Shown one piece after another: positions 1 through 34,081 of a DNA stretch of 64,000 nt. This DNA comes from Escherichia phage vB_EcoM_G2494. Position numbers and translations under genes: made by a program. Position 1 is the first letter of the stretch, and each line of letters opens with the position of its first letter. The notes under the pieces were generated by a model. That model saw only the letters and a list, made by a program, of their open reading frames with translations. It did not search any database and was not told the origin of the DNA. Location of the stretch: the sequence record MK327935.1. One strand, written 5' to 3'.

Positions 1-316
1 CTCTTTGATACAGCACGCATAGACGCACGAAAATCATTAATCATCATCATTGCGCGTTGCTGCTTATTGAGACCCTTTGCGCCTTTCCCTTTTAGTTTTT
101 CAACTTCTATTGCTGTTTTAATTTCGCTGGCATAACGAGACATACTTTTAGTGAAAGTCGCATAGGCTATTCCCTTAGAATCTGCAAATGCTTTAGCTGT
201 CATGCCTTTGGCTTTTGCTTTCGCAAATTCTACACCCAATTCGACCCACTGTTTAGACTTTCGTTTTTGGGGAGACGGCTTTTCGTCTTCTGTGATTATT
301 TCAAATACGCTCATAA
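1..316 (-). CDS. partial ORF, N-terminal ~105 codons, continues past window start; occupies the position of T4 gene 2 (DNA end protector) by synteny only
   Basis: ATG at 314-316 on minus strand with open frame to position 1 (MSVFEIITEDEKPSPQKRKSK...); absent from ORF track because no stop in window. Confidence 0.35.
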
Positions 317-325
317 TATTATCCT

Positions 326-802
326 CTATTTGTTAAGCCCTTTAAAGCCAAACACTTTCTTTAATGCATGTTCGGTGATGATCTTAAACTCCATGTTATG
401 CTTTTGACATAAATCAACCGCAGCTTTCCACTTTTCCGTGTTTACAGTATATGTGTAACACTCTTGCATATATCTTTGCTTAGTCTTAGTGGTTATTCTT
501 TTTGGCCTTTCTGGTGGCCTTGTCTCTTTTGCTGGTTTTATTTCCCATAAATGCTCTTTACCATCATCAAACTTAACGTATATATCCATGTAGTAGCGCC
601 TTTTTTTGTTATCGGCGCTGGACCAGTATGGAATCACTACGGTCTCTGACCCCCATTTAGCGACTCTAGGGTTACGGTCTAGCCACTTAAAAATGTGCAA
701 CTCCCAGCTTGACCTATACGTTATTTTATGCAAGTTATTCCCTTTGTACTTCTCAGGATTTTCCGGTCTATACTTGCCCTTATAAGTGTTAGATCCTCCC
801 AT
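326..802 (-). CDS. gp4-position protein (head completion by synteny) with Vsr/PD-(D/E)XK-like nuclease motifs
   Basis: 158 aa, divergently oriented next to gp53 as in T4; motifs YRSSWE ... YMDIYV ... EIKPAKE resemble the endonuclease module attached to the gp17 intein. Confidence 0.5.
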   Translation of the reverse strand: MGGSNTYKGKYRPENPEKYKGNNLHKITYRSSWELHIFKWLDRNPRVAKWGSETVVIPYWSSADNKKRRYYMDIYVKFDDGKEHLWEIKPAKETRPPERPKRITTKTKQRYMQECYTYTVNTEKWKAAVDLCQKHNMEFKIITEHALKKVFGFKGLNK

Positions 803-817
803 TTTAGCACCCTTTAT

Positions 818-825
818 TATAAATA
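818..825 (+). promoter_or_regulatory. T4-type late promoter TATAAATA upstream of gp53
   Basis: exact TATAAATA about 30 nt upstream of the 858 start. Confidence 0.5.
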
Positions 826-857
826 CATAATACTATTTATCAATTGAGGGTGCTAAA

Positions 858-1412
858 ATGCTCTTTTCTTTCTTCCCTGCCATTGAATACAACGGCAAGA
901 TGATTACTGACATTGTGCGCAATTACCGCGCATATTTCAACGCAATAATTTCTGATTATAACATACAAACATATTACATTCAAGGTAGTCCACGACCGGA
1001 ACAAGTTGCATATGAAGTATACGGAAACCAACAACTTTATTGGATCTTGCTGATGCTTAATGACGTATACGATCCGTTCCATGACTGGATCACCGATCAA
1101 GAGACAGCATATGAATCAGCCGAACAGCGATATGCAAATGTAGGAGGAAATCAAGTATTATACCATGTTGATATTGACGGAAACAAGTATTGGAATCTTA
1201 CCGAATATCCGAAAGGATCAAGCAATTGGTATGATAAAGGGGATATTCATCACCGTTATTTGCAGTTTCAGGGTGCATTGTCGGCAGTAGACACACTGGA
1301 AGATGCGATCCTCCGCAATGAGGAACGACGCAAGATCAAGATCATAGATCCTACACAAATTAAACAATTTATTAACGCATTCATTCGAGAAATGGAAAAG
1401 GCTGATGTGTAA
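858..1412 (+). CDS. 53: baseplate wedge protein gp53
   Basis: 184 aa, immediately upstream of gp5; size and position match T4 gp53. Confidence 0.6.
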   Translation: MLFSFFPAIEYNGKMITDIVRNYRAYFNAIISDYNIQTYYIQGSPRPEQVAYEVYGNQQLYWILLMLNDVYDPFHDWITDQETAYESAEQRYANVGGNQVLYHVDIDGNKYWNLTEYPKGSSNWYDKGDIHHRYLQFQGALSAVDTLEDAILRNEERRKIKIIDPTQIKQFINAFIREMEKADV

Positions 1413-1423
1413 GGTGATTAATT

Positions 1424-3223
1424 ATGCTAATGTTTAATAACTCCGTTAAATGGTTTACCGGAATTGTAGAAAACAGGGAAGACCCATTAATGCTGGGGCG
1501 TGTTCAGGTTAGGATTCATGGTATACATCCCTCGCTATCCGCGCACGGTGACATTCAAGGTCTTCCAACCGAAGATCTATTATGGATTACGCCAGTACAA
1601 GATATTACAAGCGCGGCGATCTCCGGTATAGGTCAAAGCCCTACTGGTATTGTTGAAGGTTCAATGGTATTTGGTTTGGCTTTAGATGAACGTTATTTAA
1701 ACTGCGTTATTCTGGGTACTATTGCCGGACAATATACAGAGAAACCACTCACTACAGAGGGTTTTTGTGACCCTTCTGGTGCATATCCTCGTTATATTGG
1801 TAATGATGTTAATATTCTTGCTCGTGGCGGTATTAACCCAGAAACCGGGCAAACAACAAAACCTGATAGTGTCTATATTCGAGATGAAAACACTGGAGTT
1901 GCAGTAAATCCAGACGACGAGCCATTAGACCAAATTCCGGTTGATGATAATCCTGATTTTACAATAGAAAAAATGCTGCGGGGCGATGAGGGATATCGCG
2001 AGAAATGGTATCTTGATTCAGAAGGATATCCGACAATAGGCATCGGGCATTTGATCATTTATAAGAAAACCAGTGATCTGGGTATTATCAATAATGAACT
2101 TTCTAAGCTGGTAGGGCGTGAAGTTACAAACGGAAGACTTACAGCCGAAGAAGTTAGTAAAGTATTTGCTGACGATATAGAAAAGACTCGTCGTGATATG
2201 CGCAAACATCCACGAATTGCACCTGTCTATAATAAATGTAATGCCTCACGTCGTATGGCATTAGAAAATATGGCGTTTCAAATGGGTGTTAGTGGATTGG
2301 GTAAATTTAAGAATAGTCTTGCTGCGATGTTAGCGGAAGAATGGAAACAAGCCTATGATGGATTACGTCAATCGGTGTGGGCTAACCAAACTCCAGGACG
2401 TTCAAGCCGTGTTTCTAAAATTATTCTTACCGGTAACTTAGAATCATATGGCGTAATTGCTCCAAAGAAAGAGGAATCTGTTTCTGAGGATCCGCGAGCA
2501 CGTTTGAGAAATGCCCGTATTGCTGCCTATAAGACGCAGAGAGCAGAAGAAGACCCAGAAGCACCGTTTACCCCACAAGACACACGAATCATGTTTAAAG
2601 AGCCTAAGAGTTCGTATTCTGCAAGGTATCCATATAACCATGTGTACGAGTCAGAGAGCGGTCATATTATCGAGATTGATGATACTCCTTCTCATGAGCG
2701 ATATCATCGTAAACATCCTTCGGGTACATTTGAAGAAACCAGACCGGACGGAACGAGGGTAGAAAAGATTGAAGGTGATGATTATCTGATCGTTAAGCAA
2801 GGCCGTAAAGTAAACGTTAAGGGTAATTTGCAAGTTGTTGTTGAAGGTGACGCGCAAGTTTATTATATGGGTAATGTGATGCAAACCGTTGATGGTAACG
2901 TCACTGAATTTATTCGTGGCAATGTTAATCAGACCGTTGAAGGTACTGCTAACATGCATGTTGTCGGTGATGTTATCGCACAGCTTGACGCTAATTTAAC
3001 GGCTAATGTCAAGGGTAATGCTGAATTAATGATCGAGGGTAACACTACCGAAACAATTAAAGGTAACTATGATTTAACCGTTGAGGGTAATTTTAATATG
3101 ACCGTCAATGGCACTAAATCAGATCAGGTTAATGGTGACTGGTCCCGTAATTGTGGTGCAAGCGTTAAAGATATTGCATCTGGCACAGTTAAAATTGATG
3201 GTAGCCGTATTGATCTTGGGTGA
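1424..3223 (+). CDS. 5: baseplate hub/central spike with tail lysozyme domain, gp5
   Basis: 599 aa; lysozyme motif EGYREKWYLDSEGYPTIGIGHLI matches T4 lysozyme family; C-terminal VxGxxxxx beta-helix repeats (VKGNLQVVVEGDAQV...). Confidence 0.9.
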   Translation: MLMFNNSVKWFTGIVENREDPLMLGRVQVRIHGIHPSLSAHGDIQGLPTEDLLWITPVQDITSAAISGIGQSPTGIVEGSMVFGLALDERYLNCVILGTIAGQYTEKPLTTEGFCDPSGAYPRYIGNDVNILARGGINPETGQTTKPDSVYIRDENTGVAVNPDDEPLDQIPVDDNPDFTIEKMLRGDEGYREKWYLDSEGYPTIGIGHLIIYKKTSDLGIINNELSKLVGREVTNGRLTAEEVSKVFADDIEKTRRDMRKHPRIAPVYNKCNASRRMALENMAFQMGVSGLGKFKNSLAAMLAEEWKQAYDGLRQSVWANQTPGRSSRVSKIILTGNLESYGVIAPKKEESVSEDPRARLRNARIAAYKTQRAEEDPEAPFTPQDTRIMFKEPKSSYSARYPYNHVYESESGHIIEIDDTPSHERYHRKHPSGTFEETRPDGTRVEKIEGDDYLIVKQGRKVNVKGNLQVVVEGDAQVYYMGNVMQTVDGNVTEFIRGNVNQTVEGTANMHVVGDVIAQLDANLTANVKGNAELMIEGNTTETIKGNYDLTVEGNFNMTVNGTKSDQVNGDWSRNCGASVKDIASGTVKIDGSRIDLG

Positions 3224-3231
3224 GGTAACTA

Positions 3232-3798
3232 ATGGTTGAAATTCTTCCGATGAGTTCAAAATTGGAGGATATCAGCGAGCGAGAAATCTTTGAGGTGGTG
3301 TTCTCTTATAAAGCAACGCCACCGGATGCAAATACCACATACACGATTAAAGAGTTTAAGATCAGCGAGTATCGCCCTAATAAGGGCGTTACCGTTGAAG
3401 AAACTAAAATATCTGGTGAGTATCGTGATAGTTTTTCGCTTGGCGCGGATTCTCTTAAATATATAACGAAAGATCGAATTAAAAAATCTGCCGGAAGTTT
3501 TGATGATTTACCAGATCCAACTACCGCAGATCTATATTATTTTAACGCTCCTACACGTCTACAGGAGGTTTATACTTATAAAGTAACCCTAACCTATATC
3601 CAATCTGTTTCAGAGTCTTCTGGGGGTTCTGGTGAAGGAAATAGTGGTGGTTCCAATAGCCGAGAGGGTGCTGGTGAAACTAATCCGCCTCCGGTAGTAA
3701 CAGAACACACAATAGAGAAAGTTTATACTCAAACCGTTTTTGGAAATTGGGATGTGTGGGCGCAGCAACTAAGAGATTATGTACATAGGGGTGTTTAA
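3232..3798 (+). CDS. hypothetical protein at the gp5.1 position
   Basis: 188 aa ORF between gp5 and gp5.4; Gly/Ser-rich linker; no recognised motif. Confidence 0.4.
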   Translation: MVEILPMSSKLEDISEREIFEVVFSYKATPPDANTTYTIKEFKISEYRPNKGVTVEETKISGEYRDSFSLGADSLKYITKDRIKKSAGSFDDLPDPTTADLYYFNAPTRLQEVYTYKVTLTYIQSVSESSGGSGEGNSGGSNSREGAGETNPPPVVTEHTIEKVYTQTVFGNWDVWAQQLRDYVHRGV

Positions 3799-3852
3799 TG
3801 GCTGGCGGGTGTCGATGCCCCGCCGTCATAAATAGTTATATAATGATTTAAT

Positions 3853-4605
3853 ATGAGGTGTTTTATGATTAAAGTGCATGACGATTTCAAAGAACTTTAT
3901 AATGTATGCTCTGAACGTTTTTATTATGATGAAACGAGCGGAACAATTAGACGAAAATATGATTGTAAGAGCAATCATTATAAAGCGGGTGATGTAGTAG
4001 GATATAAAAGAAAACAAAAAAGAACAAATAGTGAAGATGATGTGTTCTATATGTTTACTAAGATTGATGGAGTTTCTTATTCAATTCAACAAATTGTCTT
4101 CTTGCTTACCGAAGGGTATATACCCAATTGCATCGATCATATTAACAGAGACACACTAGATAATCACCGTGAAAATCTTCGTGATGCATCGCGAAGCGGA
4201 AATGCTCGCAATAAATGCAAGGTATATAAAAATGGTTTCGCCTCTTCCGATTACATTGGTGTGTCTAAGCGGGGTTCTGGATTTAGGTGTCGTATTAGAA
4301 TAGACCATGTTATTGCATATGATGAAACGTTCGAAAATGAAACATCTGCCGCATATGCATATAACGTAGAATGTATAAAATTAGGTGTCAGTGAGTATAC
4401 CAACTTTAATAAATTTGAAGACGAAGAATCTGTTAGGAAACTTTACGAAAAAGAGAAAGAAAATAAAGAGTTTCAAGAATATTGGAAGGGAACACATAAA
4501 CAGGGTAAACGATGGGGCGCTAAAGTTAAGAGTGTGCGTTTGGGTACATTCGAAACAAGGGAAGAAGCTAGACTAGCTATAATTCGCTACAAAGAGGGGT
4601 TTTGA
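3853..4605 (+). CDS. free-standing HNH homing endonuclease with AP2-type DNA-binding domains
   Basis: HNH motif [18 protein letters not shown]; AP2-like segments [15 protein letters not shown] and [23 protein letters not shown]; inserted between gp5.1-like and gp5.4. Confidence 0.8.
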
Positions 4606-4898
4606 TGGCTGGTTTATCATATGACAAAGCAAAAACTACTGGACATGGTAATTACGGTCCGACAATAATTAATGCAACTCAATCTAAGGTATTTGTTGAG
4701 GGTATCCCTGTATTAGTCGAAGGAGACCCAATTACACCACATACAAAAACAACAAAGCCTTATGATACACACGGGGGAACTACGGTCGCCAGTACCCCGA
4801 AAGTATTTGTTACCGGAAAGAAAGCAATTCAAATGGCAGATCGTATTAGCTGTGGCGATACCGTCGCTATGGCATCACCGAAGGTATTCATAAAATGA
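4602..4898 (+). CDS. 5.4: PAAR-type spike tip protein gp5.4
   Basis: 98 aa, Gly/Thr/Pro/Val-rich, sits between gp5 region and gp6 as T4 gp5.4. Confidence 0.7.
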
Positions 4899-6799
4899 CA
4901 AAGCAAAAGATTACACAAATTCCTGATATTTTTAATGCTGCTACATTCGATGAAATTAAAAGCGCATTAACAGACTGGATGAGAAACCAGGAAGAATTTA
5001 AAGATTTTGATTTTAATGGTGCTGGTATTAACGTATTGATGGACTTGCTCGCATATAACACTCTGTATATTCAGCAATTCGCTAACGCCGCGCTATATGA
5101 ATCTTTTATCAGAACGGCAATTAAGCGTAGTTCAGTTGTTCAAGCCGCGCAAGATTTAGGATATTTGCCAGCAAGTAAAACTAGTGCATCGACCACAATT
5201 ATGTTGCACGTATCACATCCGCGAAATCCGGCAAGTATTCGAATCCCACGAGGAACTAAATTTATTGCAAGTGTGGATCGCCAGACTTCTTACCCGTTTG
5301 TGACTACAGAAGACGTTGTGAGCGTTTTAGGTTCAAATGGTTTATATACGCCTATGCTTAAAGTCGCACAAGGTCGTATTGTTCGTACAGAAATGTTATT
5401 TGATCCGAAGAAACAAATTCTGATCCGTGATCCTGATATTGACCGCGCTCAGGTTAAGTTGTGGGTAGATGGTGCTGAATGGAAAGACTGGACACGAGAA
5501 AGCATTGTTAACGCAACTGGCGCTAGTAATATTTTCTATATGCGTGAAACCGTAGACGGTCATACAGAAATCTTCTTTGGTGAAGGTGAATCAACTTTAT
5601 CTGCTGCTGGCGGGGCGCTGGAAGCAAATTATATTGGTGGACTTAAGCCGTCAACTGGTGCTAATATTGTTATCGAATATATTAGCACTAAAGGCGCGGA
5701 AGCAAACGGTTCAGTTAATTTTACATATGCGGATACCCTTGCATCTATCTCTATTGTTAAAATTATTGAGAATCCGACAAATGATCGTGATTATGTCGGT
5801 GCAGATGGTGGTGGTGATCCTGAATCAATCGAACGTATCCGTGAACTTGCTCCGGTAATGCGTGAATCTCAGCGTCGTTGTGTGACTGCTTCCGACTATG
5901 AGGCTTTTGTGTCTAGCCGTTTTGGTAGTATTGTTCAGGCGGTACAATGTTTCACCGACCGAGAAAAACCGGGTTATGCTTTTGTTGCTGTTAAGCCTAA
6001 ATCTGGCTTGCGCTTGACAACCGTTCAAAAAGAAGATATGCGGGATTATCTGGCAAAATATAACCTTGCCCCTATCACGCCGAGCATCATTGACCCTAAC
6101 TATCTGTATATTAAACAGAATATTAAAGTTTCCTATTCAATCAACGACTTGTCAGAATCAGAGCAGTGGTTGCGCGGTGCGGTTATTGATCAGATTGATG
6201 CATATTATACCGACGAAGTGGAAATTTTTAACCAGACCTTTAGTAAGTCTAAAATGCTTGCGCGTATTGACAAAGCTGATGTATCTGTGATAGGTTCTAG
6301 TGCAGAAATCGAGATGGTGCGCGAGATCGACAACTTCTATAAAGCACCGATGGCGGGAATCAAGTTTTTAAACCAGTATAAGAGCGGAATCAAGTCTAGT
6401 TCATTCAACTTCGAAAAGGACGACAAGCAATATCCGATCCATTATGTAAGTACAGAAATGAACAAAGAATCAGGTTTAGCTAAATTGTTGGTTGGACCTT
6501 TCCCTGTTGATTCTACAATCGCTTTACCGCACTATTCCGGCACTGATTTTGATAAAGAGGTTATTGACGGGGCGGACCTATACTTTGAGGTTGGAGAAGT
6601 TCAGCATTATGACGACCTTATTTCATGGGATCTGGGTAAACTGAATATCAATAGCGATCGCTTTACTGGTTCATATATTGAGTTGACAGCTAAACCGATT
6701 GCTGATAACATCTTTACTAAAGACGGTTCTTTGATCGTGTTTGAAAACGATCTCCGTCCTCAGTACACAACTATTAGTCTGGAGGCAATTGCTCAATGA
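4895..6799 (+). CDS. 6: baseplate wedge subunit gp6
   Basis: 634 aa; long conserved blocks vs T4 gp6 ([50 protein letters not shown]). Confidence 0.9.
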
Positions 6800-10980: not shown

Positions 10981-11238
10981 ATGGCACGTCGTAAATTTAC
11001 AGATAATTGTGAAGCAATTCAGGTATCCCCTTGCGGTTGGGATGTGATCGCGAACGGTGAAAAGATCGGAGAGATCATCGATCATACTCATTCATCATTA
11101 GCCGATTACACCGATGAACTGTGGGAGGGTATCAACTTCATGAATGACACTAAACGATTCAAGACTATCGACGAAGCTATCTATTTTGTGTATAATCCAA
11201 CTTTCGGTATGTGGGGAACTAGAAAATGGCACGCGTAA
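10981..11238 (+). CDS. hypothetical early protein
   Basis: 85 aa; strong SD GGAGGA; first gene of three-gene cassette; starts MAR. Confidence 0.5.
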   Translation: MARRKFTDNCEAIQVSPCGWDVIANGEKIGEIIDHTHSSLADYTDELWEGINFMNDTKRFKTIDEAIYFVYNPTFGMWGTRKWHA

Positions 11239-11558
11239 ATATTAAATTGCATTACACAATGAATAAAGCTAAGTTCCCAATGCAAAAGCATTACTATGGT
11301 CTACGTGCACAAGATCCTAAACTCTATGGTACTCATTGGTTTTGTAAACATGATAACCAATGGCACACATACGAAGAAATGCACGAGATGATGAAACAGG
11401 GTATTGAATTTAGTTATTCTAATTATGACCATCGTATAACTTGCATTCGAAAATTGAAACGATGGATTCGTAAGAATCCGCAATTTAAAAACTTTGTGTT
11501 CTTTATGTCTCATGTTTATTTGGGACATAGCGTTACCGTCACAGCAAAGGTTAAATAA
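11226..11558 (+). CDS. hypothetical early protein
   Basis: 110 aa; overlaps previous gene; starts MAR. Confidence 0.5.
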   Translation: MARVNIKLHYTMNKAKFPMQKHYYGLRAQDPKLYGTHWFCKHDNQWHTYEEMHEMMKQGIEFSYSNYDHRITCIRKLKRWIRKNPQFKNFVFFMSHVYLGHSVTVTAKVK

Positions 11559-13327: not shown

Positions 13328-15126
13328 AACAATTAATTAATATCGGTAACGTTGTTGATGACGGTACAGGTGATTATCTAAGAAAAGGCGGTCAAAAGAT
13401 TAATGACAACTTTTCTGAACTTTATACTAAGCTGGGGGATGGTGATATCCCTCATGCATCCGGCGCGTGGAAAACTCACACACAACCAGTATTAAAACCA
13501 AATTTTGGTGATGCATGGGCAATTAATACAACGAACAACGCTGTTTCTGTTGAATTGCCTAAAGGAAGCGCGAGTGATTACAATAAAACAATTAAACTTC
13601 GTGATGTTTGGCGCTCATGGGCTGCACATAACGTAACATTGAAGCCAGCACAAGGTGATACCATTAAGGGATCTCCAATCGACCGTGAGTTGTATAAAGA
13701 TTTTATGGATGTTGAACTGGTTTATTGTGCGCCTGGACGCTGGGAATATATCGAAAACAAGCGAGTTGACACGATCACCACGTCTGACCTAAGCACAGTA
13801 GCTAAGGAAGTTTATATTGCCACAGAAGGGCAAACAGATTTCCCTAATGTATTTGGTTCTAACACATATAACACTCGAAATGTTGAAGTATATTATCGAG
13901 GAAACCTTTTATATTATGGCAAGTCTTTTAGTAATGACTCTAACTACGGTTCAATTGGTGAGGATGGATCACTTGTTGAACTTGATGGCAAAAGCATAAA
14001 ACTTCGTTTTCCTTGTTCGGCTGGGGACACCGTTCAAATTATTACATATATGGACGGAATTGCATCATTCCGATCTAGTTATATCACACACACAATTAGA
14101 GTGTATGATACCGGAATGACAGCACTAGAAACTATTCCGGGTGAAGTGTGGGTAGGTGATTTATCGACGAAAAAAGAATTTACCAATGCTGATTTGGGAG
14201 TTAGTAAACGTGATATAATTAACCCAAATTCATTTGAGTTATTAATAAATGGCACTCAAATGATTAAAGCTGGTGATGCTGATCTTCCTTCGTTTGTTTG
14301 TGAAGGTGCTGACGGAGAAACCGAAGAGAGTTGCGCACTTGCTGGCGGTCAGTGGGTACAGTCTGGAGAAGATTATTCACTGGTATTTGATGAGAATAGC
14401 ATTGTAACAGGGATTAAATTAGCTAAAGCGTTGGACAATAGAGATACTATAACAATTCGTTGGTTTAATAACGATATCGGAACTCTATTAGAATGGGATG
14501 GTGTCGGCGGAATTAAAGAAAAAGCAGACAAGATTTATCTCAATAACGAAGACGAAGTTAATTTAACAAAACAAATTGAATATACAGACTTCCAGAATCC
14601 TAGTCAGAAAAACACTCGTCCGGCAGAAGAGTATTCAGGTCGAATTATGGATATATATTCACTGTTTGATATTTTTCATCCGGTCGGCACGATATACGAA
14701 AACGCACATAACCCAGCTAACCCAGCGACCTATATGGGGTTTGGTATCTGGGTTCGGTATGCGGAAGGAGAATTTCTTGCTGGTTGGTCTTCCGATGCCA
14801 GCGACCAGAATTTTGCATTAAACAATAACGATCTTGATATTCATGGACAACCTACACACACCGCTGGTGGTACTGGTGGTGAAGTTGCCTATCAAATCAA
14901 GAAAGATATGATTCCTGAATTACAATCCAGCGATCGTGTTTTGGTGAAAGACGATACAGGGTCAATTATCATTGGTGGCTGTCAAGTTGATCCTGATGCG
15001 GCAGGTCCAGCGTTTACGAAATATAGAGAGGATATCGTAAAAGTTAATTCTGGAAATGCTGATCCATCAATGATGGGCATTCTTCCTCCATATCGCACCG
15101 TTCATCGCTGGTTAAGGGTAGGTTAA
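13324..15126 (+). CDS. 10: baseplate wedge subunit and tail pin gp10
   Basis: 600 aa; N-terminal domain resembles gp9 N-terminus; size as T4 gp10. Confidence 0.8.
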   Translation: MKQLINIGNVVDDGTGDYLRKGGQKINDNFSELYTKLGDGDIPHASGAWKTHTQPVLKPNFGDAWAINTTNNAVSVELPKGSASDYNKTIKLRDVWRSWAAHNVTLKPAQGDTIKGSPIDRELYKDFMDVELVYCAPGRWEYIENKRVDTITTSDLSTVAKEVYIATEGQTDFPNVFGSNTYNTRNVEVYYRGNLLYYGKSFSNDSNYGSIGEDGSLVELDGKSIKLRFPCSAGDTVQIITYMDGIASFRSSYITHTIRVYDTGMTALETIPGEVWVGDLSTKKEFTNADLGVSKRDIINPNSFELLINGTQMIKAGDADLPSFVCEGADGETEESCALAGGQWVQSGEDYSLVFDENSIVTGIKLAKALDNRDTITIRWFNNDIGTLLEWDGVGGIKEKADKIYLNNEDEVNLTKQIEYTDFQNPSQKNTRPAEEYSGRIMDIYSLFDIFHPVGTIYENAHNPANPATYMGFGIWVRYAEGEFLAGWSSDASDQNFALNNNDLDIHGQPTHTAGGTGGEVAYQIKKDMIPELQSSDRVLVKDDTGSIIIGGCQVDPDAAGPAFTKYREDIVKVNSGNADPSMMGILPPYRTVHRWLRVG

Positions 15127-15127
15127 T

Positions 15128-15772
15128 ATGATTTCTAAAACACGTTCTAAAGCAAGCGTATTTTCTAGCGACGCAGCATTCATTTCATACGATCCGGGGT
15201 CTAAAGACCCCATTATTGGTGACATTCGCCCAATTGGTGGATTAAACGTAGACCAATCTCGCAAAGGTTCTTTTATTAACAACGTACAATCAGCCATTGA
15301 TGATTTGTATAGCATTTCTATGCTTAATGTCGGTGATGTATTGGTAACTACAAATTCAACTCCACCGGAAGCGGCGGGACAAATAGAAACTCTTTCTTTC
15401 ACTGGAACGGTAACAAATAAACACGATCCAGCCGCGAAAAAAGTTGTGATTGAAGTTTTGGGTTATCCATTTGTTGTTAATGTTGGAACATCGAATGTTG
15501 CATTATGCGAAATGGTCACAACAAAATTTACTGAATTGAAAGACAAAAGTATCTTATTCTCTAGAGTTGAGAGGAAAGGTACTGGCAACGATAAAATAGA
15601 GATTCAGTATATTGATTCAAATGCACACGAAGCAACGGTCGTAGAAAAATATGGTATTAGCGTTCGTGGGGAAATAAATTCCCCTGCTCGTTATGGTTAT
15701 GGTGCATGGTCCAGAATGGGAACGGAAGAAAAATTTGGTTCAACACTATTTTATTTTAAGCGTATTGCGTAA
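15128..15772 (+). CDS. 11: baseplate wedge subunit and tail pin gp11
   Basis: 214 aa, position and size. Confidence 0.7.
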   Translation: MISKTRSKASVFSSDAAFISYDPGSKDPIIGDIRPIGGLNVDQSRKGSFINNVQSAIDDLYSISMLNVGDVLVTTNSTPPEAAGQIETLSFTGTVTNKHDPAAKKVVIEVLGYPFVVNVGTSNVALCEMVTTKFTELKDKSILFSRVERKGTGNDKIEIQYIDSNAHEATVVEKYGISVRGEINSPARYGYGAWSRMGTEEKFGSTLFYFKRIA

Positions 15773-15782
15773 GGTGTAAATT

Positions 15783-17186
15783 ATGAATAACACTATTAAT
15801 CACGTAAAAGACGATGCACAGTATGTTAAGTTTGACCCTACCGGAAATTGGCCTAGCAATATAAAAAACGTACAAGCGGCATTAGCCGCTATTCAGGGGT
15901 TTGCTATTGCAGGTCTTCCAACGGCAACCGAAGAAACAGCGGGTATTGCTGAAATTGCTACTCAAAAAGAAGTAGATGATGGGTTGGATGGAACTAAAAT
16001 TGTTACCCCAAAAACATTGGCTGTTAAGCTGTCAAGACCGGACGCAACAAAACTTGTCAAAGGGATCACTCGCTATGCTAATAACGATGAAGCTATGGGC
16101 GATACTCCAAATATTGCAATTGGTCCTGATACATTAACCCATGTATTCGAGAAGAAGAAGGCAACGGAAACCGTACAGGGTACAATTAAAATTTGTTCTA
16201 TGGATGCGGCAAAAATAGGTAGCGATGACACTATGGCAGTAACGCCTAAAAAGATGCACGCTGCGATTGCTCAGATTGTTCCTGGATTGATCCCAGAGCA
16301 AAATACCGCTTCCGAATCCCGTGAGGGTCTAGTTAGGCTGGCAACAAGCCAACAAACGCTTGCTGGTACTATCAGAGAAGGATTTGCCGTTAGCCCATAT
16401 GCATTTTCCAACGCAAGAGCCAATGAAAATCAGGCGGGTACTGTTAAAATTGCGTCATCCCAACAAATGATTGACGGTAATGACAACACAGTAGTAGTAT
16501 CAGCACAAAAATTTGCGAACACTAAAGCAACCACTGGACAATTCGGTGTTGTTAAGCTAACAGATAATCCCAGTTCCGGTGAAGCAAATGCTGCGTTATC
16601 TGCAAATGCTCGTGTATTGCCTCTAAGCGGTGGTGTCGTTACTGGTGATGTGTATCGTCATAGTGGAGGTGACGGAAACCAGTTTACCACTAAAAACGAA
16701 ATGGATGCATGGTGTATGCCAATTGGTGCAATTATTCTAACTGCATTCAATAGCAATGATCACGGCGCATTTAAAATTTGTAACGGTCAATGGTTAAATA
16801 AACACCAATATCCAGTATTATTTTCACGAATCGGTTTCACTTACGGCGGAGATGGCGGAGACAACTTTGCTCTACCCGATATGCGAGGGCTTGTTGCTAG
16901 AGGATGCGACCACGGTCGAGGACTAGACCCAGGTCGTGGATTTGGTACTTATCAAGACGACACCATGCAACATATGACAGGTAACTTCCCTGTAGCTAAC
17001 CGTTGGCGCGGTTGGACTGGTGGTGCATTTGCCATCACAGGCGGTCAATGGAGCACGAACTATAAAAACGGTGGTGGTGATGATTGGGGTAGTATTGTTA
17101 ACTTTGACAGCGCAAGACAGGTTAGAACGTCTGGCGAAACTCGCGTTAAAAGCCTTGCATTAAACTACATGATAAGGGTACAATAA
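15783..17186 (+). CDS. 12: short tail fiber gp12
   Basis: 467 aa; blocks shared with T4 gp12 (YVKFDP, LATSQ..AGTIREGFAVSPYAF, NFALPDMRGL, SLALNYMIRV). Confidence 0.85.
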   Translation: MNNTINHVKDDAQYVKFDPTGNWPSNIKNVQAALAAIQGFAIAGLPTATEETAGIAEIATQKEVDDGLDGTKIVTPKTLAVKLSRPDATKLVKGITRYANNDEAMGDTPNIAIGPDTLTHVFEKKKATETVQGTIKICSMDAAKIGSDDTMAVTPKKMHAAIAQIVPGLIPEQNTASESREGLVRLATSQQTLAGTIREGFAVSPYAFSNARANENQAGTVKIASSQQMIDGNDNTVVVSAQKFANTKATTGQFGVVKLTDNPSSGEANAALSANARVLPLSGGVVTGDVYRHSGGDGNQFTTKNEMDAWCMPIGAIILTAFNSNDHGAFKICNGQWLNKHQYPVLFSRIGFTYGGDGGDNFALPDMRGLVARGCDHGRGLDPGRGFGTYQDDTMQHMTGNFPVANRWRGWTGGAFAITGGQWSTNYKNGGGDDWGSIVNFDSARQVRTSGETRVKSLALNYMIRVQ

Positions 17187-18955
17187 TGATCGAACAGTTA
17201 AACATTCGAAAGATCCCTAACGTCGATGGTGTCCCTGGAGAGGGACAGCATTCTATTAGCTGGATTAAAAATGGTGAATGTCTAAGCGCAGCAACCACAG
17301 AAACAGGACACGAGGGGACGCTTAACCGCGCCCCTTATGCGATTCAAGAAAATATTGTTCGTCTGGATGAAAATTCTAAGACAACGGTAACAAAAGTTAA
17401 CGAAGTTGTTACAGCAGTTAATGATATTAAAACTACTTTAGGCGCGGTTGCTGATGGTAGTATTATTGATATTGTCAATCAAACTATTGCAAAGGTTGAG
17501 TCTGTAGAAGAAAATTTAGGAGAAACTTCAAGGACATTACAAACCACAGTAGATGAACTGGCAGAAACAGGAAAGAAAATTGGTGTTCGTCCGGCAGCAG
17601 ATCCGAGTACACGAACAATATATGATGATATTTCTTTCATCAAACAAGAATTGGGTGCTTTCCCTAACTTCACTATCAACGGTTCTCCAGATCCGGGTAG
17701 TTCAGGTTCCGGTATCAAATATCGAGTTATCCAGAATACGGAAGCATTAAACAACCACGATCAGCGAATCCGCCAACTAGAAAACGACTGGCAAGATTCT
17801 GACGTTGGAGAGCTAACAAAACAAGTTAACAAAATACGAAGCGAGCTAGGCGATACATCACTAGCAACACAGGACAATGTTTATCTTCGTCTTCGCACAA
17901 ACACTAGCAATATCGCTAGTATATCAAACGAAGTTCAGGAAGTAAAGAAAGCGATTCTATTTGAATCAATTCCTGATATCGGGACTAAAGTAACTAAGCT
18001 ACAATCTGATTATACACAGCTTAATGATGAAGTCAACGGCTTTGACGCTGGTATCCGTCCTCGTTTAACTCTTCTGGAAAATACGATTGGCAATCCTCAA
18101 GCCGCTGGAAGTATTGATTATCGATTGACTAATCAAGAACGGGAATTTGTAGATCTTAAATCTATTGTCGGTGTTAGTGGTGCTGATGGCCTACGTGGTG
18201 AGGTTGCACGAATCTCTAACACAGTTGGTACTGATAGTGAGCGTCATACTATCGCAGGTCGTCTAAAAATTGTAGAAAATACACAGGGACGACTAGAAGC
18301 TAGCGTACAGGATATCGAGCAAATGATCGGAGATCGAGATTCCGGTCTAACCGCCGGGGTTATTAAGCTGTCAAGCGACATGTACGGCAATCCAGAAGGA
18401 AGCACGCAGCTTGAACAAGATGGGGTCGTGAAAACTGTTAAGGAATTGAGCACATCAAATGCAAGCAAGGTAACAGACGTTCCTGATGATGGTTTCCATT
18501 ATCTACGTAAGCACGGGGAATGGGTTCAGGTCGCATGGGCGGCTGGTACATTTAAAAACACCGCTCAGATTGATATTACTCTCGACGGACAAGATCAATA
18601 CAAAGGAATCCCGCTAAACGATATGACCGAAGAAGTTCCTGCGCGTGGAATGGTTAAGAGCGAATCTCTTGTTACGGTTAACGACAAAGGCTTATTCCGT
18701 TGTGATTTCCGTTGTTCTGTACATGCGGCAAATAACGCTACTTTCGTAGTCGGTATTGCTAAAAATGGTCTGATTGTACATGAGGTACGAAATGGTCATT
18801 ATGGAACTGATGATTTAATTAGCTATTCTACCAGTGCTTTCCTAAATATTGAAAAGGGCGACCGGATCGATATTCGCATTAAGGGCGTATCCGAAGAAGC
18901 ATTAGCGCAACAGCTACAAATTAAAGAGTTCCTCTTTGGAATTTCTCCGGTATAA
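17186..18955 (+). CDS. wac: fibritin (wac) with ~130-aa extension beyond the foldon-like segment
   Basis: N-terminus SISWIKNGE as T4 fibritin; coiled-coil heptads; foldon-like HYLRKHGEWVQV followed by extra C-terminal domain. Confidence 0.8.
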   Translation: MIEQLNIRKIPNVDGVPGEGQHSISWIKNGECLSAATTETGHEGTLNRAPYAIQENIVRLDENSKTTVTKVNEVVTAVNDIKTTLGAVADGSIIDIVNQTIAKVESVEENLGETSRTLQTTVDELAETGKKIGVRPAADPSTRTIYDDISFIKQELGAFPNFTINGSPDPGSSGSGIKYRVIQNTEALNNHDQRIRQLENDWQDSDVGELTKQVNKIRSELGDTSLATQDNVYLRLRTNTSNIASISNEVQEVKKAILFESIPDIGTKVTKLQSDYTQLNDEVNGFDAGIRPRLTLLENTIGNPQAAGSIDYRLTNQEREFVDLKSIVGVSGADGLRGEVARISNTVGTDSERHTIAGRLKIVENTQGRLEASVQDIEQMIGDRDSGLTAGVIKLSSDMYGNPEGSTQLEQDGVVKTVKELSTSNASKVTDVPDDGFHYLRKHGEWVQVAWAAGTFKNTAQIDITLDGQDQYKGIPLNDMTEEVPARGMVKSESLVTVNDKGLFRCDFRCSVHAANNATFVVGIAKNGLIVHEVRNGHYGTDDLISYSTSAFLNIEKGDRIDIRIKGVSEEALAQQLQIKEFLFGISPV

Positions 18956-18961
18956 GAAATT

Positions 18962-18984
18962 AAAGGGGCGTTAAGCCCCTTTTC
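18962..18984 (+). terminator. terminator hairpin after wac
   Basis: GGGGCGTTAAGCCCC followed by TTTT. Confidence 0.55.
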
Positions 18985-19001
18985 CGTTTATAGGTGATAT
19001 T

Positions 19002-20751: not shown

Positions 20752-21507
20752 ATGAAAAACTATTATCTATACGAAATAAAGAACAATATAAATGGTAAGA
20801 TATATGTTGGCATTCGTGGGTATGATGGTGACATAAGTCAAGATCCTTATATGGGTAGTGGATTGACTCTTAAGAGGTCTATTAAAAAGAACGGGATAGA
20901 AAACTTCACAAAAACAATTCTCAAAACGTTTGACTCATGGAAAGAGGCAAGGAAAGCAGAAAGAGAAATAGTTACAGAGGAATTTGTAAAAAGAGAAGAT
21001 ACCTATAATGTTTCGGTTGGTGGACAAGGTGGAAATACTCACGCTGGGATGAGCGAAGAACGAAGAAAACTTGCAAGCGAAAGACACGCAGAAGCAAACC
21101 GAAATAGAGTATGGAAGCAAGAATCTAGAGATAAGGTTAGCGCAAGATTCAAAGGTCATAAGCTATCACAGAAGCAGATAGACGCGCTAAAGAAGGCAAA
21201 CACAGGAAGAAAGTTCACAGAAGAACACAAGTTCAAAATAGGTAAAACGTGGCGAGGAAAGAAACGACCAGATATAGGAGAGAAGGTTGCGGCAAAATTA
21301 ACAGGGAGAAAACTACCCCCAGAACATGTGGCAGCAATAACGCAAAATACACCGAGAGGAAAACAACACTTTAGGGCAAAAAGATTCTTCATCGACGATA
21401 TGGAATTTTATATTTTGAGTGACGCAGCTAAAATGTTTGGTATAAGTTATAAAACGGTTAAAGCTAGACTTCTCTCAGATAAGTTTCCTACATGGAGATA
21501 TGAATAA
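20752..21507 (+). CDS. free-standing GIY-YIG homing endonuclease (Seg-like)
   Basis: GIY-YIG motif YLYEIKNNINGKIYVGI; NUMOD-like repeats; C-terminal HTH ILSDAAKMFGISYKTVKARL; inserted between gp14 and gp15. Confidence 0.8.
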   Translation: MKNYYLYEIKNNINGKIYVGIRGYDGDISQDPYMGSGLTLKRSIKKNGIENFTKTILKTFDSWKEARKAEREIVTEEFVKREDTYNVSVGGQGGNTHAGMSEERRKLASERHAEANRNRVWKQESRDKVSARFKGHKLSQKQIDALKKANTGRKFTEEHKFKIGKTWRGKKRPDIGEKVAAKLTGRKLPPEHVAAITQNTPRGKQHFRAKRFFIDDMEFYILSDAAKMFGISYKTVKARLLSDKFPTWRYE

Positions 21508-22396
21508 ATGTTTTCACATTTTTACAATTCGTCAATTAGACGGTATATTGTATTGCTGGGTAATTTATTCTCCGGCGTACAAATTAAAAGGGTGCGTAGC
21601 GACGGTGAGCGTTTTATTAAAGTTCCTATCACCTACGCAAAGAAAGAAAAATTCATGATGAGTCTGGACAAATATAACAATATCTCAAGTGAGGAAGACG
21701 TAGCAAAGGTAGAAACTATTTTACCGCGTATGTGTCTTTCTTTGATTGATATGACATACGCCCAGAACTTTAAAACAAATATTGCAAATAAGACAGTACC
21801 AAAATATACGGCTGATGGAATCAGGAGCGTAACACAATATAATCCTGTACCATATAAGTTTACTTTCGAGTTAGGGATTTATACGCGTACAATATAATCC
21901 TGTACCATATAAGTTTACTTTCGAGTTAGGGATTTATACGCGTAACGAAGATGATATGTTTCAGATAATTGAACAGATTCTTCCTTACTTCCAGCCTCAT
22001 TTTAACTGTAAGATTAAAGAACTACACGGTAATGATGTATGGATTGATCGAGATATTCAGGTCACTATTAGTTCTATTACTCCAGATGAACAGGTAGGCG
22101 AAGATAAGTTTTCTCGTCGTCGTCTTGAGTGGACCATTATGTTCGAATTTATCGGCTTTATATATCCTCCAGCTACCGACGTTAAGGGGGAAATTAGAAC
22201 GATTTATCTTGATTTTCATGCTAATTCTCGTGAATTAAATCCTAGCGGTAATTTTGAATCAGTGGATCACGAGGTCGTTAAACGTGACGTCGAGCAAGAA
22301 GATTGGGACGGAACAATCAAAGAATCATATTCTAGTGATATTCCAATACCAGTTGCACCAACTCCACCGGGTCCACGTATTGTAAGAGAATTTTAA
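21508..22396 (+). pseudogene. 15: gene 15 (tail sheath stabiliser/tail completion) split into two ORFs (21508..21897 and 21956..22396) by a frameshifting tandem duplication
   Basis: N-part ends ...ELGIYTRTI*, C-part starts MFQIIEQILPYFQPHF; removing one 55-bp repeat copy restores the continuous T4-like sequence ...GIYTRNEDDMFQIIEQ... Confidence 0.7.
21835..21944 (+). repeat. perfect 55-bp tandem direct duplication inside gene 15
   Basis: caatataatcctgtaccatataagtttactttcgagttagggatttatacgcgta present twice back to back (21835-21889 and 21890-21944). Confidence 0.85.
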
Positions 22397-22409: not shown

Positions 22410-26015
<3,606 letters not shown>

Positions 26016-32497: not shown

Positions 32498-34081
32498 ATG
32501 AAAACTACCAAAGAACTGATGGAAAAATGGTCCCCGCTGCTGGAGAACGAAAAACTGCCGGAAATCGCAACTGCGTCTAAGCAGAAACTGGTTGCTAAAA
32601 TTCTGGAATCTCAGGAAGCGGATTTTGCTGTAGACCCGATCTATAAGGATGAAAAAGTTGTTGAAGCATTTGGTGGCTTTATCACCGAAGCAGAAGTTGC
32701 TGGCGACCACGGTTACGATGCATCCAAAATCGCCGCAGGTCAGACCACTGGTGCAATCACCAACGTAGGTCCGGCTGTTATCGGTATGGTTCGCCGTGCT
32801 ATCCCTAACCTGATCGCATTTGATATTTGTGGCGTTCAGCCGATGAGCACTCCGACTAGCCAGATCTTTGCAATCCGTTCTGTATACGGTGGCGATCCGC
32901 TGAAATCCGATGCTCGCGAAGCATTCCACCCGATGTTTGCGCCGGATGTATATCATAGCTCTCTTGCCGCTAAAGACGCAACCGCAAGCTCTCCGACTGG
33001 TACTGCATTCCAGAAACTGCAAAACAGCCAAGCAATCAACGAAGGTGATATTGTATATCACGTATTCGAACAGACTGGTATTGCATATCTGCAAAACGTT
33101 AAAGGTTCTACCGTAACACCTACTCAGGCGGGAGATACCCTTGATGAATGCGTAATGAAGCTGATCGAAAAAGGCGAACTGGCTGAAATTGCTGCTGGTA
33201 TGGCTACTTCCATCGCTGAATTGCAGCAAGGGTTTAATGGTTCTCAGAATAACCCGTGGAACGAAATGTCAATGCGTATTGACAAACAGGTTGTTGAAGC
33301 GAAATCTCGCCAACTGAAAGCCCGTTACTCTATCGAAGTTGCGCAGGATCTGCGTGCTGTACACGGTATGGATGCTGACGCTGAACTGAATGCTATCCTG
33401 GCTAACGAAGTTCTGCTGGAAATCAACCGTGAAATCGTTGACGTCATCAACTTTACCGCTCAGGTTGGTAAGACTGGTATGACTCAGACCGTTGGTTCTA
33501 AAGCTGGTGTATTTGACCTGCAAGACCCGATCGATACTCGCGGTGCTCGTTGGGCTGGTGAATCCTTCAAATCTCTGATCTATCAGATCGACAAAGAAGC
33601 TGCTGAAATCGCTCGTCAGACTGGTCGCGGTGCTGGTAACTTTATTATCGCTTCCCGTAACGTTGTAAACATTCTGGCTTCTGCTGATCAGGGTATCAGT
33701 CTTGCTATGCAGGGTGCTGCACAGGGTCTGAACACCGACACCACTAAAGCTGTTTTCGCTGGTGTTCTGGCTGGTAAGTATAAAGTATTCATCGACCAGT
33801 ATGCTCGTCAGGACTACTTCACCGTAGGTTACAAAGGCGACAACGAAATGGATGCTGGTATCTACTATGCTCCGTATGTTGCTCTGACTCCGCTGCGTGC
33901 AACTGATCCGCAGTCTTTCCACCCGGTTCTGGGCTTCAAGACTCGCTACGGCATCGGTATTAACCCGTTTGCAGACAGCAAATCCCAGGCACCGTCCGCT
34001 CGCATCACCTCCGGTATGTTGAGCAAAGACAGCGTAGGTAAAAACGCATACTTCCGTCGTGTATGGGTTAAAGGTTGCTAA
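32498..34081 (+). CDS. 23: major capsid protein gp23
   Basis: 527 aa; near-collinear identity to T4 gp23 (PLLENEKLPEI, GDHGYDASKIAAGQT, MVRRAIPNLIAFDICGVQPM, GIYYAPYVALTPLR, KTRYGIGINPFA, NAYFRRV). Confidence 0.95.
   Translation: MKTTKELMEKWSPLLENEKLPEIATASKQKLVAKILESQEADFAVDPIYKDEKVVEAFGGFITEAEVAGDHGYDASKIAAGQTTGAITNVGPAVIGMVRRAIPNLIAFDICGVQPMSTPTSQIFAIRSVYGGDPLKSDAREAFHPMFAPDVYHSSLAAKDATASSPTGTAFQKLQNSQAINEGDIVYHVFEQTGIAYLQNVKGSTVTPTQAGDTLDECVMKLIEKGELAEIAAGMATSIAELQQGFNGSQNNPWNEMSMRIDKQVVEAKSRQLKARYSIEVAQDLRAVHGMDADAELNAILANEVLLEINREIVDVINFTAQVGKTGMTQTVGSKAGVFDLQDPIDTRGARWAGESFKSLIYQIDKEAAEIARQTGRGAGNFIIASRNVVNILASADQGISLAMQGAAQGLNTDTTKAVFAGVLAGKYKVFIDQYARQDYFTVGYKGDNEMDAGIYYAPYVALTPLRATDPQSFHPVLGFKTRYGIGINPFADSKSQAPSARITSGMLSKDSVGKNAYFRRVWVKGC

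Follow-up and report, generated by a model that had tools for sequence, protein, structure and literature searches.

The head completion protein gp4 of bacteriophage T4 has been described as a TnsA-like nuclease with the restriction endonuclease fold that is needed for morphogenesis (Iyer et al., PMC7824862). Its non-specific DNase activity is required according to Benler et al. (2020, Virology 543:7), as cited in the same article (PMC7824862), and a paper of 2025 restates this requirement. Gene 4 is counted among the core genes of T4 relatives (PMC2993671). Nucleases of another kind accompany the inteins of the terminase TerL (gp17 in T4-like phages): a terminase split intein with an unusual break point was reported in a "fractured gene" arrangement (Dassa et al., 2009, PMC2677866), protein trans-splicing by atypical TerL split inteins is known from the literature, and the phage endonuclease Hef belongs to the Vsr-like EDxHD family (Taylor et al., 2011, PMC3239194). 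Here we compare two nucleases encoded in one stretch of 64,000 nucleotides (nt) of Escherichia phage vB_EcoM_G2494 (MK327935.1), called the window below. The first is the 158-amino-acid (aa) product of the open reading frame (ORF) at 326–802, on the minus strand, where T4 has gene 4. The second is a nuclease module fused to an intein fragment of gp17, in the ORF at 22904–24655, on the plus strand. The original prediction, made from the letters of the DNA, held that these two proteins share a Vsr-like nuclease signature.

The shared signature, YRSSWE followed by D and ExK, is a mark of true common ancestry; it reflects neither mobility of gene 4 nor a Vsr-type site. With high confidence, ORF 326–802 can be regarded as a resident gene, orthologous to T4 gene 4 and vertically inherited, for a metal-dependent PD-(D/E)XK nuclease of the TnsA/T7-endonuclease-I type with a single domain, and the gp17 nuclease as a homologous domain that belongs to a separate homing family.

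Homology of gp4 and the gp17 nuclease module

The motifs that had drawn attention to the two proteins are all present: YRSSWEL, YMDIYV and EIKPAKE in the 158-aa ORF, on the minus strand and in T4 gene order, and YITDFVDHD and YEVKPKRL in the module of ORF 22904–24655. BLASTP aligned gp4 with the 583-aa product of this latter ORF at 29% identity over 83 aa (E = 2e-4), and T4 gp4 also matched the gp17 insert (E = 5e-4). The Smith-Waterman score of the gp4-module pair was 74, against 32.2 ± 5.5 in 3000 shuffles (z = 7.6), none of which reached 74. Comparison with hhalign gave E = 5.8e-14 for a four-sequence module profile against gp4. With a profile of 43 gp4 sequences and one of 34 module sequences, the probability rose to 99.3% (E = 1.1e-20) over 115 columns, that is nearly end to end, and the alignment took in the N-terminal G-x-[FY]-x-P segment as well as the C-terminal helix-strand.

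Like-for-like hhalign controls were run among gp4, the module, T7 endonuclease I, Tn7 TnsA and a 67-sequence TnsA profile. The gp4 profile aligned with single module members at E values of 1e-7 to 8e-13 over about 108 columns, with T7 endonuclease I at 3.4e-5 over 59 columns and with Tn7 TnsA at 3e-3 over 56 columns. Conversely, the module profile aligned with single gp4 sequences at 1e-8 to 1e-11 (90–112 columns), with T7 endonuclease I at 1.1e-5 (90 columns) and with Tn7 TnsA at 5.6e-3 (61 columns). The TnsA profile reached E = 4e-5 over 99 columns with the gp4 profile and 4e-4 over 62 columns with the module profile. Searches of the PHROG families were consistent with this picture. After its own three families (15427, 22417 and 22215), the best match of the module was phrog_218, "head closure" (1.7e-10), and families of the endonuclease I type followed at 8e-8 to 1e-4. 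The sole non-gp4 match of the window gp4 was phrog_15427; T4 gp4 matched phrog_22215 and one more endonuclease family, phrog_15137. By sequence-profile comparison (PHROG, hhalign), gp4 is thus among the closest relatives of the module family and is its closest other phage family.

Over 127 shared columns, the mean identity was 25% between gp4 and the module, 26% between the module and endonuclease I, 23% between gp4 and endonuclease I, and 16–19% to TnsA. Neighbour-joining on the same columns set gp4, the module and endonuclease I apart from TnsA in 100 of 100 bootstraps. In our reading of these alignments, gp4 and the module are true and fairly close relatives, which form with T7 endonuclease I one subgroup of the restriction endonuclease fold, apart from TnsA. 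An insertion of 22 residues follows the ExK motif in gp4 and is absent from the module, TnsA and endonuclease I. That gene 4 and the gp17 insert were linked by recent duplication within the genome or by recent gene conversion was also considered and was rejected, since blastn shows chance matches of 9–14 nt only (E of at least 0.9).

Active site and nuclease family

Motif I of gp4 is YRSSWE (aa 29–34, nt 701–718, minus strand; as YRSSWEL, aa 29–35, nt 698–718). Its E34 is predicted to be the first of the metal-binding carboxylates and corresponds to E20 of T7 endonuclease I; this Glu does not vary among 43 gp4 sequences or within the module family, and it is aligned with FRSGLE of T7 endonuclease I. 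The SET segment (aa 52–54, nt 641–649, minus strand) places Glu53 ahead of a conserved IPY strand, and the column is invariant in the gp4, module and five-way alignments. Motif II, YMDIY (aa 71–75, nt 578–592, minus strand; as YMDIYV, aa 71–76, nt 575–592), holds the invariant D73, which is the "D" of PD-(D/E)XK and corresponds to D55 of T7 endonuclease I and D114 of TnsA; hhalign puts this motif on STDF of TnsA. Motif III, WEIKPAKE (aa 86–93, nt 524–547, minus strand; as EIKPAKE, aa 87–93, nt 524–544), supplies E87-x-K89 as the "(D/E)XK", in correspondence with E65/K67 of T7 endonuclease I and Q130/K132 of TnsA. The E, K and P of this motif are invariant and were aligned by hhalign to QVKP of TnsA. 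Residues E34, E53, D73, E87 and K89 are thus all invariant across the 43 gp4 sequences, and T4 gp4 carries the matching motifs YRSNWE, SET..IPY, YFMDIW and IEIKPKKE.

In the module, the corresponding motifs lie at aa 488–497 (with RSSWE from nt 24368), aa 525–533 (YITDFVDHD) and aa 538–545 (YEVKPKRL), and E493, E510, D528, E539 and K541 are its predicted catalytic residues. When the module is aligned with T7 endonuclease I, the E of RSSWE, the D of (T/M)D(F/I) and the E-x-K of EIKP fall on residues 20, 55, 65 and 67, numbered on the translation of T7 gene 3. We take E20, D55, E65 and K67 to be the catalytic residues of that enzyme. The conserved D and K also fall, in hhalign, on D114 and K132 of TnsA. 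From this alignment onto the catalytic positions of T7 endonuclease I and TnsA, the active site is the canonical PD-(D/E)XK set, with E34, D73, E87 and K89, together with the invariant E53, as the predicted catalytic residues of gp4.

Both proteins exceed the gathering score of PF08722 (Tn7_TnsA-like_N), which is 26.5 bits, with 73.6 bits for gp4 and 34.5 bits for the module. In the same Pfam searches, the module falls just short of PF05367 (phage endonuclease I), and gp4 does not reach it. TnsA is the top structural match of gp4 and the module alike, within the restriction endonuclease fold. At the sequence level, T7 endonuclease I was the sole PDB match of the module profile, even at E ≤ 10. 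A solved gp4 structure was sought by sequence and the sole match was a spurious one to an Affimer (E = 0.016). The C-terminal domain of TnsA (PF08721) is not matched by gp4, which has a single domain in a phage structural-gene setting with no tnsBCD neighbourhood.

By contrast with the original prediction, which had proposed a PD-(D/E)XK/Vsr-type site, the Vsr half of that description did not hold. Neither gp4 nor the module matched Vsr (PF03852) or DUF559 (PF04480) in Pfam at E ≤ 1, and Vsr (1cw0) and I-Bth0305I (3r3p) were unmatched in PDB sequence searches with gp4 (E ≤ 1) and with the module (E ≤ 10). The Vsr-type active site, with Asp/His and without a catalytic Lys, is not the pattern seen here, where the invariants are E, D and E-x-K. 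The PD-(D/E)XK half is borne out by PF08722 and by these same residues, the invariant Lys included. "Vsr-like" holds only at the level of the shared fold, and the right label is TnsA/endonuclease-I-like.

Identity and neighbourhood of gene 4

The window comes from a T4-like coliphage of the genus Krischvirus (RB49/Phi1/GEC-3S group), and its bases 1–6000 are 96.5–97.4% identical to JEP8, GEC-3S and Phi1. Gene 4 (326–802, minus strand) starts with ATG and encodes the head completion nuclease gp4 as 158 aa with a single TnsA/endonuclease-I-like PD-(D/E)XK domain. On one side lies the 5' part of gene 2, for the DNA end protector (1–314, minus strand), in T4 order and with 99–100% identity to the annotated gene 2 of JEP8 and RB49. 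On the other side, divergently transcribed from gene 4, are the conserved neighbour gene 53, for the baseplate wedge (858–1412, plus strand), and gene 5 (1424–3223, plus strand). Comparison of annotations showed that the order gene 2, gene 4, genes 53 and 5 is common to the window, T4, RB49, JEP8, phiS and GEC-3S.

A tblastn search with gp4 matched 2577 phage records, with at least 80% protein coverage in 2550 of them, and nearly all matches bear the annotation "head completion" or "head closure". With T4-type phages, gp4 is about 54% identical over 95% of its length, and the gene 4 locus is full length in 58 Krischvirus records. The best PHROG family is phrog_218 "head closure" (E = 5.4e-59), and the UniProt label for gp4 homologues is "Head completion nuclease". 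On the tblastn matches, phrog_218, the position and the core-gene listing, ORF 326–802 is therefore the gp4 orthologue. Since the two segments align significantly (BLASTP E = 2e-4, shuffle z = 7.6, hhalign E = 1.1e-20), and since T4 gp4 has the motifs and the ORF is its orthologue, the observation behind the original prediction stands confirmed; its interpretation is partly supported.

The gp17 split intein and its endonuclease

In the window, gp17 is split over two plus-strand ORFs, at 22904–24655 (583 aa) and 24636–26015, which overlap by 20 nt. The first ORF opens with the N-extein (aa 1–254, 22904–23665; Terminase_6N, E = 1.4e-25), which is colinear with the intact gene 17 of RB49 and ends in the Walker B sequence ...IYIDE. 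Directly after it, at the start of the insert relative to RB49, a short N-intein fragment of about 26 aa runs from Cys255 onward (23666–23743, with an approximate C-terminal limit). A linker of about 130 aa and a Cys-rich, zinc-ribbon-like region (23744–24265) form the in-frame fusion between this fragment and the nuclease. Apart from a weak match to Zn_ribbon_3, the region has no Pfam domain, and its part from about aa 384 onward shares homology with the N-terminal end of free-standing endonucleases of the HY03 type. Then comes the gp4-like/TnsA-like module of 129 aa (aa 455–583 and the stop codon, 24266–24655), the nuclease domain of the intein-associated homing-type endonuclease, with a G+C content of 0.376 versus 0.405 for the window.

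The second ORF begins with a long C-intein fragment (aa 1–106, 24636–24953) ending in VESHN followed by C, which phmmer matched to PDB 6DSL_B, "Consensus engineered intein CatC" (E = 1e-12). The C-extein, starting with Cys+1, fills the rest (24954–26015); it holds the C-terminal part of Terminase_6N and Terminase_6C and is colinear with RB49 gene 17. The hallmarks of an atypical TerL split intein are present, namely the long C-fragment match, Cys255 after IYIDE and the terminal Asn-Cys+1. The match to CatC fits the unusual terminase break point of Dassa et al. and the literature on AceL-TerL and GOS-TerL. The window shows a half-fused arrangement, intermediate between fractured gene and bifunctional intein. 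Its N-intein fragment would still splice despite a C-terminal tail of about 300 aa, and the module would cut intein-free terL alleles, so driving homing. The insert (about 23666–24953) was found in 6 of about 64 Krischvirus records (kaaroe, SAP, TB34, phiS, JK32 and GoldenSnicker) and not in RB49 and GEC-3S, where gene 17 is intact.

An exhaustive profile search for the module family recovered 2491 cluster representatives at E ≤ 1e-3, with 794 at E ≤ 1e-10. Among 68 members scanned, PF08722 was detected in 59, NUMOD3 in 16, a fusion to Terminase_6N in 4 and a fusion to UvsW and Hint/intein in 2. The N-termini of the family are NUMOD3 or Cys-rich and zinc-ribbon-like, which are typical DNA-binding modules of homing endonucleases. 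In HY03, SG1, phiR1-RT, TG1 and PspYZU05, a relative of the module (about 50% identity) is encoded as a 199-aa "endonuclease" ORF of its own between the terL halves, and the two metagenomic members whose context was examined are both flanked by a Terminase_6N and a Terminase_6C ORF. The family is not confined to T4-like phages: Lak megaphages and Bacillus phage SP-15 are among its other carriers. Its sporadic presence, the relatives at terL breaks, the DNA-binding modules and the CatC match together identify the module, by sequence, as an endonuclease of the homing type that resides in an atypical TerL split intein. Assignment to the phage Hef family was rejected, Hef being Vsr-like EDxHD and the module having no sequence similarity to I-Bth0305I or Vsr. 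A literature search on TnsA-like homing endonucleases (TnsA with intein or NUMOD) returned nothing relevant. No description of the terL-resident family was found in the literature searched, and the link from gp4 to this large family, apparently undescribed as well, modestly extends what is known.

In Campylobacter phage CP21 (examined stretch 3400–4522), a member of this family interrupts phoH and is itself split in two ORFs. The C-terminal endonuclease fragment (CP21_059) is called "head closure" by RefSeq, a carry-over from gp4. The kinship of gp4 and the module explains why annotation pipelines sometimes give endonuclease fragments this label.

A divergent patch inside gene 4

Few short stretches in the first 50 kb of the window diverge from RB49 and GEC-3S, and gene 4 is among them. 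Sliding identity placed the divergent patch at 400–800 (minus strand, about aa 1–135), with 67–85% nucleotide identity to RB49, JEP8 and GEC-3S and flanks at 99–100%. Over codons 1–100, the synonymous divergence (dS) is above 1.3, so that synonymous sites are saturated, and the ratio of non-synonymous to synonymous divergence (dN/dS) is about 0.1. Krischvirus has at least four classes of gene 4 allele, and the allele of the window is common to phage phiS only (96.4%). The gene 4 allele showed no correlation with the terL insert: the insert-bearing kaaroe, SAP, TB34, JK32 and GoldenSnicker carry other alleles (84–86% identical). The patch looks like a recombinational import of old alleles.

Phage phiS (examined stretch 1207–1740) also has an extra HNH_3 + AP2 endonuclease gene between gene 3 and ORF130w, at about 1.3 kb from gene 4; the corresponding interval lies beyond the start of the window.

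Origin of the relationship

Two readings had been offered for the shared motifs, that ORF 326–802 is itself a free-standing gene of the homing endonuclease kind, or that the intein endonuclease was recruited from a gp4-like nuclease. The former has almost nothing to recommend it. The product of gene 4 does share its nuclease family with a homing endonuclease, and the gene does contain a patch with sharp limits and high divergence, although the Krischvirus genomes are otherwise nearly identical. However, it sits at the same locus in every relative examined, is found in 2550 phage records at ≥80% coverage and is a core gene (PMC2993671). Its product is a single 158-aa domain with no NUMOD, zinc-ribbon or helix-turn-helix extension. 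The G+C content of gene 4 is 0.394 against 0.405 for the window, whereas the three homing endonuclease inserts are at 0.35–0.38; the gene is under purifying selection (dN/dS of about 0.1), and its polymorphism is allelic, not one of presence and absence. Gene 4 is not a mobile gene. It is just as hard to believe that the shared motifs arose by chance or convergence, or that both proteins are of the Vsr/DUF559 family. Alignment statistics exclude chance, sequence-level matches to Vsr, DUF559 or I-Bth0305I were not obtained, and TnsA is the top structural match of both proteins, whose E-D-ExK pattern with its invariant Lys differs from the Asp/His/Asp of Vsr.

The latter reading combines homology, which is established, with recruitment, which is only possible. 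It would derive the nuclease domain of the module from duplication of the gp4-like gene resident in a T4-like ancestor, with later fusion to DNA-binding modules, and we consider it only tentatively. The two are each other's best non-self family, they align over their full length, and TnsA is much more distant from both; gp4 occurs in all T4-like phages, the endonuclease only sporadically, and many members of the endonuclease family reside in T4-type terL genes. Yet the identity of gp4 and the module, about 25%, is no higher than the 26% of the module and T7 endonuclease I, and the bootstrap values that separate these pairings are 51 and 43. In addition, the 22-residue insertion of gp4 is found in neither the module nor TnsA nor endonuclease I, the endonuclease family extends outside T4-like phages (Lak megaphages, Bacillus phage SP-15), and gene 4 and the insert have no DNA similarity in this genome. 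The reverse course, in which gp4 would be a domesticated nuclease of the homing-endonuclease/resolvase type that lost its DNA-binding module and was recruited to head completion, seems improbable to us. It can draw on the same homology data, on the gp4-specific insertion, which looks derived, and on the precedent of nucleases resembling homing endonucleases that were co-opted into packaging (discussion in PMC10448857), but nothing polarises the tree. Moreover, gp4 is monophyletic and is found throughout T4-like and related jumbo phages, so any domestication event would be very ancient. Recruitment in either direction is possible, and would be ancient if it happened. It is therefore with reserve that we put forward the broader proposal that the terL-intein endonucleases took their catalytic domain from gp4, or that gp4 descends from such an endonuclease, and that the gene 4 patch might reflect nuclease-driven allele exchange. 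If this is true, an essential packaging-stage nuclease and a selfish element targeting the gene of the packaging ATPase are direct evolutionary siblings. Were this sibling relationship polarised, it would be one more case of traffic between selfish nucleases and essential phage machinery.

The account that we favour, of a resident gp4 orthologue and a homologous homing nuclease, also has several points against it. Neighbour-joining divides between gp4 with the module (51 of 100 bootstraps) and the module with endonuclease I (43 of 100). In a Foldseek search of the module model against viral models, several "Endonuclease I" entries came ahead, and "Head completion nuclease" appeared at rank 20 (E = 8e-7). 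The orthologue account leaves the divergent patch of gene 4 unexplained. Also, the function of the window gp4 is carried over from that of T4 gp4, for which the cleavage substrate and timing are themselves unsettled. By analogy with T4 gp4, the protein would act non-specifically on DNA at the end of packaging and so let filled heads join tails, and it may cut DNA at the portal after packaging.

The nuclease signature of gp4 is already known, from the literature and from the names in Pfam, PHROG and UniProt. As the assignment of T4 gp4 as a nuclease was published earlier, the signature in gp4 is therefore not new, and our main result is a rediscovery of T4-type gp4 as a nuclease of the restriction endonuclease fold. 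Three modest but real additions can be made. The family assignment is corrected to TnsA/endonuclease-I-like instead of Vsr-like, the endonucleases in atypical TerL split inteins form a large family that has gp4 among its closest relatives, and the occasional "head closure" label of endonuclease fragments is accounted for.

Other homing endonuclease genes and divergent stretches in the window

A free-standing GIY-YIG (SegE-like) homing endonuclease gene, with a DNA-binding domain of the I-TevI type and NUMOD3, lies at 20752–21507 between genes 14 and 15, and is not in RB49 and GEC-3S. A 56-nt tandem duplication at about 21834–21944, about 330–440 nt downstream of the end of the GIY-YIG gene (21507), breaks gene 15, for the tail sheath stabilizer (21508–22396), into two ORFs (129 and 146 aa); the segment present twice corresponds to nt 327–382 of RB49 gene 15. 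The duplication may represent a genuine lesion, the footprint of a repair event or an error of assembly. Another homing endonuclease gene, of the HNH_3 + AP2-like kind, is located at 3853–4605, flanked by genes 5.1 and 5.4; GEC-3S and JEP8 have it, whereas RB49 and Phi1 do not. T4 has segC roughly at this place. Short patches diverging from RB49 and GEC-3S were also seen at 11201–11400 and 33001–33200, one in a small ORF and one inside gene 23, for the major capsid protein. The gp10-gp11-gp12-wac block (13800–19000) has 67–86% identity to RB49 and GEC-3S, a divergence that is expected because these are adsorption proteins.

Comparison with known systems

The HK97 gp74-type HNH nuclease that works with terminase (PMC10448857) resembles gp4 in having a domain of the homing endonuclease type in an essential packaging or head role. 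It differs by its unrelated HNH fold and by acting in cos cleavage, not in head completion. The Vsr-like EDxHD homing endonucleases I-Bth0305I and Hef (PMC2677866, PMC3239194) have the broad restriction endonuclease fold in common with the proteins studied here. With the module they also share a life-style, that of a free-standing or intein/intron-associated gene between the halves of a split phage gene, with DNA-binding modules of the NUMOD type.

The gp17 arrangement is close to the atypical TerL split inteins (GOS-TerL, AceL-TerL and Cat-TerL; PDB 6DSL) in its TerL host, its short N- and long C-fragment (about 106 aa) and the endonuclease gene at the break. Unlike the endonucleases of those inteins and of fractured genes, which are GIY-YIG or Vsr-like, the one in the window is gp4/TnsA-like. 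In HY03 the endonuclease is a separate ORF, whereas here it is fused in frame to the short N-intein fragment within the 583-aa ORF.

From the N-terminal catalytic domain of Tn7 TnsA (PF08722; PDB 1t0f), gp4 and the module are set apart by an identity of 16–19% and profile-profile E values of 4e-5 and 4e-4, and by having neither the C-terminal domain of TnsA (PF08721) nor a transposon context. T7 endonuclease I, the gene 3 Holliday junction resolvase (PF05367; PDB 1fzr, 1m0d, 2pfj), is nearer: its FRSxxE...EYE...PY...(T/P)DF...E-x-K aligns residue for residue, and it clusters with gp4 and the module apart from TnsA (100/100 bootstraps). Only 59 to 90 N-terminal columns of this enzyme align with gp4 and the module, and the analysis gave no sign of its domain-swapped dimer or of its junction specificity in either. 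T4 gp4 (genes 4/50/65; PHROG 218) is the counterpart of the window gp4 by full-length orthology at about 54% identity, by its position between genes 2 and 53, by its length class (158 aa here, 150 aa in T4) and by the invariant E/D/ExK residues. The gene of the window differs in being a Krischvirus allele, the N-terminal two-thirds of which form a locally divergent mosaic patch relative to other Krischvirus.

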